Source: Escherichia phage Phi05_1387 B
Direction: 5' to 3' (one strand)
Sequence record: KM389362.1
DNA: 4,647 bases
In this document: positions 2,136 through 4,647 of the stretch, piece by piece
Numbering within the stretch: position 1 is the first letter of the stretch
Layout: each line of letters starts with the position of its first letter
Notes under the pieces: model-generated
What the model saw: only the letters and a program-made list of their open reading frames with translations
Database searches by the model: none
What the model was told of the DNA's origin: nothing
Made by a program: the position numbers and the translations under genes

Positions 2136-2257
2136 TGAACAAGTGCAACGCTCTGCTTTATGCCATGGTGATTGGTTTCGGCCTGGCTGCTGGTATCCGG
2201 GTTTATATTACCTGGGAGTCATTAATCAATCTGGCGTGGAGTGCGATTCGTGGCTAA
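2135..2257 (+). CDS. Small predicted membrane peptide (40 aa), hypothetical
   Basis: ATG at 2135 overlaps the upstream stop (TAATG) and follows GGAGG (2123-2127) at 7-nt spacing. Product MNKCNALLYAMVIGFGLAAGIRVYITWESLINLAWSAIRG has one hydrophobic stretch long enough to span a membrane. Stop is TAA at 2255-2257. Its short length makes it uncertain. Confidence 0.45.
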   Translation: MNKCNALLYAMVIGFGLAAGIRVYITWESLINLAWSAIRG

Positions 2258-2588
2258 ATCCCCCGCAGAACGCAAAGCCGCGCAGCGCGCTCGGCAGTCC
2301 GCCGCCGGTGAGCGCAAAATTGAACTGGTGCTGGATAAGCAGGAGCAGGAAATGCTGGCGCGGAACTGCGCCGCCCGGCGCCCTGGTCGCGATCCCTATG
2401 AAATGTCCGAGTACATCGCGCTGCTGATCCGCCAGGATGATGCACGTGTGCGCGGGCGTATAAAATCGATCAGCAGAAAACGTTGCGGTAAGTGCGGCGA
2501 GAGAGTTCCCGTTAATTCATGCCCGTGTAATGGTGACTCGCAATGCTGGGTGACTAAAGGCTGGCATGAAACGAAATTAATAGTGTGA
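2241..2588 (+). CDS. Small basic protein with C-terminal Cys-rich (zinc-ribbon-like) motif; possibly YlcI/YnfO-like (low-confidence family call)
   Basis: GTG at 2241, or GTG at 2250 which has GGAG (2238-2241) at 8-nt spacing and gives MAKSPAERKAAQRARQ... The product is a charged helix-like region (ERKIELVLDKQEQEMLARNCAARRPGRDPYEMSEYIALLIRQD) followed by C-x2-C-x9-C-x-C-x5-C (CGKCGERVPVNSCPCNGDSQC). It sits immediately upstream of the small terminase gene, where YlcI/YnfO-family genes lie in E. coli DLP12 and Qin. The 5' half is GC-rich. Stop is TGA at 2586-2588. Confidence 0.55.
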   Translation: MRFVAKSPAERKAAQRARQSAAGERKIELVLDKQEQEMLARNCAARRPGRDPYEMSEYIALLIRQDDARVRGRIKSISRKRCGKCGERVPVNSCPCNGDSQCWVTKGWHETKLIV

Positions 2589-2596
2589 CATGTCAC
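2585..2596. repeat. Perfect 12-bp palindrome GTGACATGTCAC overlapping the stop codon of the upstream gene
   Basis: Read directly from the sequence; its reverse complement is identical. It lies at the 3' end of the accessory gene block, about 110 bp upstream of the terS start. Confidence 0.85.
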
Positions 2597-2637
2597 GAGT
2601 AGATTATGCATGATGAATTTGATGGGTTTTGAATACT

Positions 2638-2663
2638 GCCGCCAACTATGGCGGCTTTATTTT
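2638..2663 (+). terminator. Rho-independent terminator candidate
   Basis: A 7-bp GC-rich stem GCCGCCA (2638-2644), loop ACTA (2645-2648) and stem TGGCGGC (2649-2655) are followed by TTTATTTT (2656-2663). It lies in the gap between the upstream gene block and terS. Confidence 0.7.
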
Positions 2664-2667
2664 GCAT

Positions 2668-2698
2668 GGTACTATTACCAAAACGGTAACTATTACCA
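2668..2698. repeat. Tandem direct repeat GGTACTATTACCA / GGTAACTATTACCA immediately upstream of the terS ribosome-binding site
   Basis: The copies are at 2668-2680 and 2685-2698 and are identical except for one extra A. Each has an internal inverted GGTA...TACC. They lie between the terminator and the GGTGG RBS (2700-2704). Confidence 0.75.
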
Positions 2699-2709
2699 CG
2701 GTGGTTATG

Positions 2710-3303
2710 ATGCCTGCTGAACCTAAAACCTATAAACGCAAATCAACGCAATTTAAGCCACTAACAGCAATGCAGGAGGCTTATTGCCAGTCATACATCA
2801 AAACGCCTGAAAACCAGACTCAGGCAGCGATTAACGCAGGATTCTCCCCAAATACAGCGGCAGTTAAAGCCAGTGTCATGATGCGCGATGAACGCATTCA
2901 AAAACGGATTGCCGAGTTGATGGAGGAGCGCAACAAACGAATGCGCGTCAGTGCTGATTACGTTCTCATGCGCCTGGTGCAGATCGACCAGATGGACGTG
3001 ATCGACATCCTCAACGACGATGGGAGCCTTAAACCAATCCGTGAGTGGCCGAAAATCTGGCGCACTACGCTTAGTGGCTTTGATCTGTCATCGACCATCA
3101 TGAACATGAACGAGGATTCGATAGAGACAATCCTCAAAAAAATTAAATGGCCTGACAAGGTGAAGAACCTTGAGCTGATTGGTAAGCATGTTGATGTCAA
3201 CGCGTTCAAAGAACGTCTGGATGTTAATGTGAATGTGACAATTGCTGATCGCATAGCAGCAGCCAGGAAGCGACTCAAAGAACGTCAGGATGGTAATCAG
3301 TGA
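2710..3303 (+). CDS. terS: Terminase small subunit (Terminase_2 / P27-like HTH type, tentative subfamily)
   Basis: ATG at 2710 follows GGTGG (2700-2704) at 5-nt spacing; ATG at 2707 is the in-frame alternative. The N-terminal region (about 2761-2920) reads LTAMQEAYCQSYIKTPENQTQAAINAGFSPNTAAVKASVMMRDERIQKRIAEL, which matches the helix-turn-helix pattern of this small-terminase family. Stop TGA at 3301-3303 overlaps the GTG of the next gene. The track's ATG at 2629 would translate through the terminator hairpin and is rejected. Confidence 0.8.
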   Translation: MPAEPKTYKRKSTQFKPLTAMQEAYCQSYIKTPENQTQAAINAGFSPNTAAVKASVMMRDERIQKRIAELMEERNKRMRVSADYVLMRLVQIDQMDVIDILNDDGSLKPIREWPKIWRTTLSGFDLSSTIMNMNEDSIETILKKIKWPDKVKNLELIGKHVDVNAFKERLDVNVNVTIADRIAAARKRLKERQDGNQ

Positions 3304-4647
3304 CAGATACAGCGTTATCTCCTGAAGAGCAGTTGATCGAGGATATTGCAGGGTTCACTCACGATCCGCTTGGCTATGCCCTCTATGCGTTCCCGTGGGG
3401 GGAAGAGGGGACTGAACTGGCACATGCTACCGGCCCACGTCAGTGGCAGGCTGATGCGTTCCGAGAGATACGTGATCACCTGCAGAATCCAGAGACGCGC
3501 TATCAGCCGCTTATGCTGGCACGTGCTTCGGGTCACGGTATTGGTAAATCCGCATTCATCTCAATGCTGATCAACTGGGGCATGTCCACTTGCGAGGATT
3601 GTAAGGTCGTGGTGACCGCCAACACCGACAACCAGCTACGAACGAAGACCTGGCCGGAAATTATCAAGTGGTCGAACCTTGCTATCACGAAAGACTGGTT
3701 TACCTGTACCGCTACTGCGATGTACAGCAATGATCCTGGGCACGACAAGCGGTGGCGAGCTGACGCAATCCCCTGGTCTGAGCACAACACTGAGGCATTC
3801 GCCGGACTACACAACGAGCGCAAACGCATCATCGTGGTATTCGATGAAGCGTCGAACATTGCGGATCTGGTGTGGGAAGTTGCTGAGGGTGCGCTTACGG
3901 ACGAAGACACTGAGATTATCTGGGTGGCGTTCGGAAACCCTACACGTAATACCGGGCGTTTTCGCGAATGTTTCCGCAAATACAAACACCGCTGGAAAAC
4001 TGCGCAGATTGACAGCCGGACGGTGGAAGGCACTAACAAACAGCAGTTGCAGAAATGGGTTGATGACTACGGGGAAGATAGCGACTTCGTTAAAATCCGT
4101 GTGCGCGGCATATTCCCGGATGCATCTGAATTGCAGTTTATCCCTACCGGACTTACTGACGAGGCAATGAAACGGGTGGTCACCGCTGCGCAGGTTGCAC
4201 ATGCTCCGGTGATAATCGGCGTTGACCCGGCATACTCCGGTGTTGATGACGCGGTGATATATCTGCGGCAGGGGCTGCACAGTAAGGTGCTGTGGACCGG
4301 CAACAAGACCACTGACGATCTGATTATGGCGAAGCGTATCGCTGACTTTGAAGACCAGTACCAGGCTGACGCGGTGTTCATCGACTTCGGTTACGGAACC
4401 GGTTTGAAGTCAATCGGTGATGGTTGGGGGCGTACATGGCAACTTGTTCCGTTCGGTGGCGCGTCTACTGACCCGCAGATGCTTAACAAGCGTGGGGAGA
4501 TGTTCAACTCATGCAAGACATGGCTGAGGCTGGGCGGCATGCTGGATGACCAGGAAACAGCGGACGACCTGTCGGCGGCAGAGTACAAAGTTCGCGTGGA
4601 CGGTAAAATCGTTATCGAACCGAAAGAAGATATCAAGGAGCGGCTTG
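3300..4647 (+). CDS. terL: Terminase large subunit (ATPase and nuclease), 3'-truncated by the window edge
   Basis: Not in the ORF track. The frame is open from GTG 3300 (just after an in-frame TAA at 3294-3296) to the window end, about 449 codons. Walker A ASGHGIGKS is encoded at 3525-3551. Walker B IIVVFDE is at 3828-3848. A nuclease-domain-like acidic motif VIIGVDPAYSGVDD begins at about 4209, with the first Asp at 4224-4226. AGGA (3287-3290) lies 9 nt upstream of the GTG. Confidence 0.9.
   Translation, partial: MTDTALSPEEQLIEDIAGFTHDPLGYALYAFPWGEEGTELAHATGPRQWQADAFREIRDHLQNPETRYQPLMLARASGHGIGKSAFISMLINWGMSTCEDCKVVVTANTDNQLRTKTWPEIIKWSNLAITKDWFTCTATAMYSNDPGHDKRWRADAIPWSEHNTEAFAGLHNERKRIIVVFDEASNIADLVWEVAEGALTDEDTEIIWVAFGNPTRNTGRFRECFRKYKHRWKTAQIDSRTVEGTNKQQLQKWVDDYGEDSDFVKIRVRGIFPDASELQFIPTGLTDEAMKRVVTAAQVAHAPVIIGVDPAYSGVDDAVIYLRQGLHSKVLWTGNKTTDDLIMAKRIADFEDQYQADAVFIDFGYGTGLKSIGDGWGRTWQLVPFGGASTDPQMLNKRGEMFNSCKTWLRLGGMLDDQETADDLSAAEYKVRVDGKIVIEPKEDIKERL

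Follow-up and report, generated by a model that had tools for sequence, protein, structure and literature searches.

The operators of the C1 repressor of phage P1 are dispersed over its genome, the late genes of which depend in addition on the activator Lpa, while the gp71 stoperators of mycobacteriophage L5 are asymmetric 13-mers, orientation-dependent and present at about 30 sites. For phage SPP1 the pac site overlaps the promoter region of terS, the gene of the small terminase subunit. Nearer to the DNA described here, the RefSeq record of phage epsilon15 (NC_004775.2) lists a protein-binding site named "repressor; lysogeny" at positions 12–27 (TTACCAAAACGGTAAT), directly upstream of terS. 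The record marks four further sites of the form ATTACC-N5-GGTAAT, of which three adjoin the repressor gene and one is located farther down the early-right operon, and it gives a stem-loop as a rho-independent terminator. The DNA in question is a window of 4,647 nucleotides (nt) from Escherichia phage Phi05_1387 B (KM389362.1), the word window meaning the whole stretch analysed, and the subject is the stretch of about 120 base pairs (bp) that precedes terS at 2585–2706. By comparison with its relatives we consider this stretch likely to be the place where the early-right operon meets the terminase (late) operon, a junction made up of a regulator-linked palindrome, a variable gene slot, a terminator and a promoter operated by the prophage repressor Rep, and not a cos site. 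The regulatory junction is ordinary though compact: terminator and Rep operators are of kinds already known, and the record of epsilon15 includes the operator. The features in window coordinates are as follows.

2250–2588, plus strand: gene of a 112-residue uncharacterised regulator (phrog_536), last gene of the early-right operon; PHROG match with E = 6e-54.
2585–2596, no strand: palindrome GTGAC-AT-GTCAC, the left half-site of which holds the TGA stop of the regulator gene; probable (predicted) site of that regulator.
2606–2632, plus strand: eight-codon mini open reading frame (mini-ORF), MHDEFDGF and stop, probable remnant of a 70-residue accessory gene (phrog_1541).
2638–2663, plus strand: intrinsic terminator with a G+C-rich stem of 6–7 bp, a loop of 4–6 nt and the tract TTTATTTT, from a terminator scan and folding.
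2667–2675, plus strand: predicted extended -10, TG-G-TACTAT, of the terS-terL operon, from conservation and operator register.
2674–2690, no strand: operator 1 (predicted, Rep), ATTACC-AAAAC-GGTAAC, one mismatch to ATTACC-N5-GGTAAT.
2692–2708, no strand: operator 2 (predicted, Rep), ATTACC-ACGGT-GGTTAT, one mismatch; covers the ribosome binding site and reaches the start codon region.
2700–2704, plus strand: Shine-Dalgarno sequence GGTGG of terS, 5 nt before the ATG at 2710; GGTGG or GGCGG in relatives.
2710–3303, plus strand: terS, small terminase subunit (Terminase_2; Pfam PF03592, E = 1.4e-29), start set by alignment.
3300–4647, plus strand: terL, large terminase subunit, running off the end of the window (phrog_2, E = 3e-48; orthologue of phiV10 p02).

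Between 2200 and 3400 the window shares 98% identity with Escherichia phages EC.W1-9 and phiV10 and 93–95% with other members of Uetakevirus, the epsilon15-like phages. A segment of 520 bp around the junction is found in 663 of 5426 complete E. coli genomes (about 12%), nearly always in the chromosome, and the window thus belongs to an epsilon15/phiV10-like (Uetakevirus) prophage, a temperate podovirus that is common in E. coli. The order of genes is Ead/Ea22-like and DUF550/DUF551 accessory genes, the phrog_536 protein of 112–115 residues, terS and terL. The elements were judged mainly by a comparison that covered 160 loci with a terS homologue, taken from viral contigs and from bacterial genomes; of these, 88 align across the intergenic region, constituting 60 distinct sequences. 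Taken by themselves the palindrome and the direct repeats lie little above chance, and the functional case therefore rests on conservation in the relatives: two perfect 12-bp palindromes are seen in the window with 1.24 expected, so that a palindrome alone is not unusual, and an exact 10-nt direct repeat within 30 nt is mildly unusual in the window (P about 0.08). The other perfect palindrome, TGAAGGCCTTCA at 100–111, lies within the first ORF and is expected by chance at this window size. Rfam covariance models gave no match to the whole window at E ≤ 1. The sequence-only reading of this DNA had proposed a comparison of related prophages for conserved elements between varying flanks, and this pattern is found: in relatives with flanks of only 73–83% identity the palindrome arms GTGAC/GTCAC, the terminator stem with its T-tract and TG-n-TA-s-TAT are unchanged, and so are the blocks ATTACC, GGTAA, TTAC, and GG-GGTA followed by ATG.

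The direct repeats reported at 2668–2698 are present as GGTACTATTACC (2668–2679) and GGTAACTATTACC (2685–2697), with the exact 10-mer ACTATTACCA in common and 18 nt apart, but a pair of inverted-repeat dyads next to each other, at 2674–2690 and 2692–2708, describes them better. Each repeat is the left half of a 17-bp dyad ATTACC-N5-GGTAAY together with preceding bases, and the two dyads are separated by 1 bp. The site in epsilon15 has the orthologous position upstream of terS and is a perfect match to ATTACC-N5-GGTAAT, whereas the dyads of the window have one mismatch each (GGTAAC and GGTTAT) and the second dyad, overlapping the ribosome binding site, is unannotated in epsilon15. The relatives keep the left half of operator 2 as ATTAC[C/T] and its right half as GGT[A/T]A. 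Allowing at most one mismatch, there are nine copies of the motif in phiV10 and 11 in EC.W1-9, where Markov shuffling of the genomes gives 0.03, and SPN1S has 12. Nearly all copies are intergenic: they lie to either side of rep and ahead of terS, of the portal operon, of the tail-fibre gene and of the lysis cassette; rep is flanked by the motif in epsilon15, phiV10, EC.W1-9, SPN1S and the prophage of E. coli KC-Dl-1. The last, with 99.4% identity to the window, carries it on both sides of rep, at terS and before the portal operon. The phiV10 repressor p40 is homologous to Rep of phage SPC32H with E = 4e-42 (PDB 5d50, the structure ascribed to Kim et al., PNAS 2016), and the Rep of epsilon15 is gp38. 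Adjacent operator pairs are found in the immunity region of SPN1S as well, at 34415 and 34432, which fits the binding of DNA by Rep as a tetramer, a result of the SPC32H study in the form reported in PMC9638917. Overexpression of the repressor in the relative ZX5 lowered holin transcription by 99.97% (PMC9782041), consistent with repression of late operons by Rep, either direct or indirect.

The dyads of the window thus carry the operator motif of the prophage repressor, and from the motif, its conservation, its distribution over the genomes and the database annotation we infer that Rep binds here. The earlier suggestion of an operator for autoregulation by TerS holds as regards an operator-like site and control of the late operon, but not as regards the protein, the motif being that of Rep; and the proposal that the repeats are TerS-binding elements does not agree with the motif being present at no fewer than eight other intergenic sites, those on either side of rep among them. 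The proposed arrangement would be like that of P1 C1 in having one prophage repressor, many intergenic operators and several operons under direct control, and unlike it in that protein and operator sequence are unrelated and no late activator is evident. With the L5 stoperators it shares repressor sites scattered in late regions, which could block transcription in a lysogen, and it differs in that the sites are symmetric dyads at promoter-like elements. A conserved CATATRTGGTTT also follows, at a distance of 40–50 nt, the Rep operators ahead of the portal, tail-fibre and lysis operons, and could be a leader or processing element or the site of a second regulator. A related ATGTGGTTT precedes the operator at the DUF1064 gene, and the terS leader has only GGTGGTT. 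The positions for these motifs are about 3307, 20921 and 24739 in phiV10, about 3258, 20085 and 24855 in SPN1S, and 29384 in locus L166.

The terminator hairpin with a U-tract that had been claimed at 2638–2663 is real. It consists of GCCGCC-AACTAT-GGCGGC, with six G-C pairs in the stem, followed by TTTATTTT, is picked up by the terminator scan, and folds at -16.2 kcal/mol (z = -4.8), none of 200 shuffles being as stable. The hairpin is kept in nearly all relatives and missing only where a UmuD-like gene occupies the slot; its stem is essentially invariant among them, leaving no covariation to count, and the first base of the loop is A or G. The stem-loop annotated in the epsilon15 record is its orthologue. 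The terminator is of a known kind, and ends the early-right operon and the slot gene. Directly downstream follows TGnTA[C/G]TAT, which is conserved in all relatives, those without the terminator included. The -10 shares its last two bases with the beginning of operator 1, and an identical register is shown by the PL-like early promoters in phiV10 and SPN1S, which have TTGACA 17 bp upstream of the hexamer. With a TGn motif, a hexamer that has A2 and T6, the operator register of these promoters, and the terminator in the position of a -35, TG-G-TACTAT should constitute an extended -10 promoter that Rep would occlude.

The sequence-only reading had further suggested that the terminator marks the point where late transcription depends on antitermination. 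The terminator stands, but with a conserved promoter-like element just 3' of it antitermination is not required to explain late expression. A model that does require it would have no promoter past the terminator, the genes terS and terL being transcribed by read-through from the early-right operon with a phage factor, perhaps the phrog_536 protein at the palindrome, while the Rep dyads act as a roadblock in lysogens in the manner of the L5 stoperators. The strong terminator and the missing -35 would be in line with this, and so would the palindrome, which in epsilon15-like phages lies between stop codon and terminator after the regulator gene, after the reverse-oriented gene by terL and after the last structural gene, as it does in one N15 copy. 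However, TGnTA[C/G]TAT is kept even in relatives lacking the terminator, its operator register is that of bona fide PL-type promoters, the palindrome is not beside a terminator in other lineages, for instance between gp46 and gp47 of N15, and no N- or Q-like factor is annotated in the epsilon15-like records inspected. To our knowledge no mechanism has been described for a DNA-bound protein acting at a terminator, and we regard antitermination here as decidedly unlikely. The preferred junction with its own late promoter resembles pR'-tR' and Q of lambda in that a strong intrinsic terminator lies between a regulator gene at the early-right end and the late genes; it is unlike it in that no Q homologue is annotated, that a promoter-like element and repressor operators lie downstream of the terminator, and that the terminator is altogether missing in relatives with the UmuD-like slot gene.

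A cos site of the lambdoid type was the main claim made from the sequence. The terminase would nick the palindrome as an equivalent of cosN and TerS would bind the repeats as an equivalent of cosB, giving unit-length genomes with cohesive ends. As in lambda, where cosN and cosB precede Nu1, the stretch is located just upstream of the small terminase gene and has a symmetric element and repeats, and the phiV10 record begins at window position 2589, within the palindrome. However, TerS belongs to another terminase family, Terminase_2 of the SPP1/SF6 type, with a match of E = 5e-7 to TerS of Bacillus phage SF6 (PDB 3zqp), and both motifs are found at many further sites in the genome. The start of the phiV10 record is not a mapped DNA end, the record being cut exactly after the stop of the last gene, and records of other relatives begin at arbitrary positions. 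The palindrome has 2–4 copies per genome, at operon ends. In the cos phage N15 the record gives a 12-base cohesive end at position 1 and the palindrome lies far away at the gp46 stop, at 39269 (39.3 kb), so that a role as nick site is excluded. For the relative Tyrion, with 84% identity in terS, terminal redundancy and circularly permuted ends were found by polymerase chain reaction (PMC5754475). A cos site at this place is thereby largely refuted already, and we give it hardly any credence. The type of packaging rests on TerS, on the HHpred notes of the epsilon15 record, which tie TerL to Sf6 gp2, and on the Tyrion paper, and the phage group most likely packages by a headful mechanism. The epsilon15 genome itself is reported to have been found circularly permuted in a paper from 1992.

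With headful packaging the dyads, the palindrome or both might be a pac site, the place where TerS recognizes DNA for the first cut, as pacL and pacR around the terS promoter of SPP1. TerS is in the same family as those of SPP1 and SF6, and terS-terL is flanked by two palindrome copies in most epsilon15-like loci. Yet the dyad motif is not specific to terS, as it flanks rep and precedes other operons, and the palindrome follows the regulator gene and not the terminase, being present in N15- and P2-like phages with unrelated terminases; EC.W1-9 has no palindrome copy downstream of terL. A pac site made of these elements is therefore quite improbable.

The palindrome GTGACATGTCAC is present at 2585–2596 as a perfect 12-bp palindrome, as had been claimed, and overlaps the TGA stop (2586–2588) of the upstream ORF. 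Across the relatives the arms are invariant while the two central bases vary (AT, AG, GG, CT, GT, TG, GC), and the palindrome keeps its place despite another gene inserted ahead of it or a different 3' end of the upstream gene. It is present in all 90 loci that have the phrog_536 gene and absent from 68 of the 69 that lack it. Orthologues of the regulator are gp49 of epsilon15, p55 of phiV10 and gp46 of N15, and homologues, mostly of 112 residues, are also encoded by other N15-like, P2-like and Pseudomonas phages. The stop codon lies within the left half-site (G-TGA-C NN GTCAC) in 19 of 19 N15-like contexts, in 32 of 37 Yersinia/P2-like contexts (at 1788 in the Yersinia P2-like phage) and in 14 of 19 Pseudomonas contexts, and also in a Klebsiella phage; in ZF40 the palindrome begins 2 nt after the TAA stop. 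This overlap persists between lineages with just 33–41% identity in the regulator protein, where neutral DNA would be randomised, and this argues for a sequence-specific recognition tied to the regulator gene. The site is doubled in the Pseudomonas phages, the second copy lying 22 nt downstream, and some of the Yersinia phages have an imperfect second one. The simplest reading of these comparisons is that the palindrome is probably where the phrog_536 protein binds. Four cysteines of this protein are invariant, the alignment of homologues showing invariant Cys, Pro and Gly columns, and it has no match in Pfam, NCBIfam or PDB. A ribbon-helix-helix fold is not supported, there being no such Pfam match and a probability below 1% with hhalign against Arc and CopG. 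A CRP site at the palindrome was also discarded, TGTGA-N4-TCAC having the wrong spacing. Folded as RNA, the palindrome (-2.9 kcal/mol, z = -0.15) and the repeats (z = -0.8) are no more stable than shuffles, and roles at the RNA level were therefore dropped for both. The gene after the regulator in the Yersinia P2-like phage is the LexA-controlled antirepressor tum.

Further copies of the palindrome are placed in a similar way. A second perfect one is located about 75 nt after terL in most epsilon15-like loci, flanked by a terminator and by the stop of a variable gene in reverse orientation. The phages phiV10 and SPN1S have a further one after the last structural gene, beside a terminator, and SPN1S has a near-perfect one at the stop of the Rz gene. 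Copies of GTGACATGTCAC are found at 2262–2273 and 19493–19504 in phiV10 and at 2174, 19662, 26722 and 38653 in SPN1S. In the epsilon15-like phages every extra copy has the stop of a gene on one side and an intrinsic terminator on the other, and borders a variable slot for accessory genes. Between gp46 and gp47 of N15 there is no adjacent terminator, while one other N15 copy does sit between stop and terminator. The position at the ends of transcription units and the edges of variable slots, in the epsilon15-like phages and for that one N15 copy, suggests a role at transcription-unit ends, and it could equally be that of a recombination boundary. In the latter case the palindrome would be a module-boundary sequence at the edges of accessory slots, kept because exchange occurs there, and no protein-binding operator. 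Each copy has a conserved core on one side and a highly variable accessory gene on the other, and in locus L047 two reverse-oriented cassettes each end in a terminator and a palindrome. Invariant 5-bp arms around a variable centre, with the stop embedded at a constant place even at 33–41% regulator identity, argue for recognition of this very sequence in connection with the regulator gene, and the tandem palindromes of Pseudomonas and Yersinia phages resemble operator arrays; a pure boundary is thus unlikely, although a boundary and a regulator site are not mutually exclusive. The association of palindrome and regulator gene across phage families appears to be undescribed. Very tentatively, GTGAC-N2-GTCAC and the phrog_536 protein may be an undescribed regulator-site pair in temperate phages of podo-, sipho- and myovirus type from enterobacteria, Pseudomonas and Vibrio, perhaps with a new kind of 3'-end control (insulation, antitermination or cis-preferential protein loading) and not necessarily a promoter operator.

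Several points weigh against the junction as we describe it. Both dyads of the window are one base off the consensus, operator 2 overlaps the Shine-Dalgarno sequence so that its conservation is perhaps partly translational, and the repressor annotation of epsilon15 may itself be a prediction. No -35 is matched 16–18 bp upstream of the predicted -10, a region occupied by the terminator, and a generic promoter scan does not call the terS promoter, and late transcription could be read-through of the terminator with Rep as a roadblock. For the regulator a fold is not established (AlphaFold pLDDT 61, no Foldseek match at E < 3), and its binding to DNA, and thus to the palindrome, is therefore assumed from the PHROG label "transcriptional regulator" and the Cys cluster. 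The palindrome is away from the stop codon in the Samsonia relative and in the Vibrio phages, lying 237 nt downstream in the latter. The headful mechanism, finally, draws on the genome announcement of one relative and on family resemblance.

A minimal form of the junction is seen in Samsonia erythrinae at 2906–2985, where the stop of the regulator is followed directly by a perfect dyad ATTACC-GCGCC-GGTAAT, by ATTACC-N6-ATTACC and by the start of terS. It has neither palindrome nor terminator, and the palindrome appears only downstream of terL. The prophage of E. coli KC-Dl-1, the identity of which holds across the junction, has a tRNA-Arg gene (12264–12340) in the accessory slot that separates terL from the portal operon.

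Between palindrome and terminator lies a variable gene slot, which is empty in epsilon15. Many E. coli prophages have a slot that is 186 bp longer and codes for the 70-residue phrog_1541 protein, beginning MPKIRY and ending YDEFDGL before the stop, and the eight-codon mini-ORF of the window consists of the start and the last codons of this gene and ends 5 nt ahead of the terminator stem. Since the E. coli lineage includes frameshift and non-synonymous variants of it, the mini-ORF at 2606–2632 is probably a decaying remnant of the phrog_1541 gene. Such variants oppose a leader peptide that couples translation to the terminator, an idea that we abandoned; three distant relatives (L087, L071 and L089) have the mini-ORF with synonymous changes, which is suggestive of such a peptide. 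In Citrobacter and Kluyvera relatives the slot is filled by an 85-residue phrog_2100 gene behind a LexA box, and in other relatives, those in which the terminator is missing, by a UmuD-like gene behind a LexA box. The boxes of both types of slot gene have the consensus TACTGT-N8-ACAGTA, and in these relatives the palindrome ends 1–7 bp ahead of the -35 of the LexA-controlled promoter.

The start of terS is given differently in the records. The GenBank and RefSeq annotation of phiV10 and that by PGAP in E. coli genomes start the gene at a TTG at 2629, 81 nt upstream of the conserved ATG, by which terminator and operators would be part of the coding sequence, and the annotations of EC.W1-9 and epsilon15 have the short form. 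The long form spans 41–715 in locus L001 and 9389–10063 in locus L306. In the relatives the frame is closed by stops located 6–42 nt upstream of the ATG aligned to 2710, there are indels between them that are not multiples of three, and the Terminase_2 domain starts 18 residues past this ATG. The long ORF is ruled out by the in-frame stops; from the alignment, terS starts at ATG 2710 (or 2707), and 2629–2706 is therefore to be regarded as non-coding. TerL is of a divergent lineage, showing no Pfam-A match at E ≤ 0.01 and no PDB match at E ≤ 1 with phmmer, and matching just phrog_5902 and phrog_2.

Taken in order, the early-right operon would end with the gene of the Cys-rich regulator, the TGA of which lies inside a palindrome that is likely the regulator's own site on the DNA. 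Next comes the variable accessory slot, reduced here to what is probably an eight-codon remnant, and then the strong terminator, which should stop early and slot transcription from entering the late genes. The predicted extended -10 TGnTACTAT would then be overlapped by the two Rep dyads, the second of which covers the ribosome binding site of terS. In a lysogen Rep on the dyads would occlude RNA polymerase and silence terS-terL, and when Rep is inactivated terS-terL would be derepressed along with the portal, tail-fibre, lysis and early operons.

The comparison removes a false lead to a cos or pac site and corrects the start of terS in the phiV10 and RefSeq records. Among complete E. coli genomes about 12% have a prophage of this type, with Rep operator motifs in the promoter regions of its packaging, portal, tail-fibre and lysis operons, and this distribution points to direct control of each operon by the lysogeny repressor, a flat circuit like that of P1 with no late activator evident. 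This is of relevance for the engineering of reporter phages of the phiV10 type and for predictions of the prophage genes that a lysogen keeps silent. The more interesting lead is the conserved palindrome, tied across unrelated phage types to the stop codon of an uncharacterised regulator.

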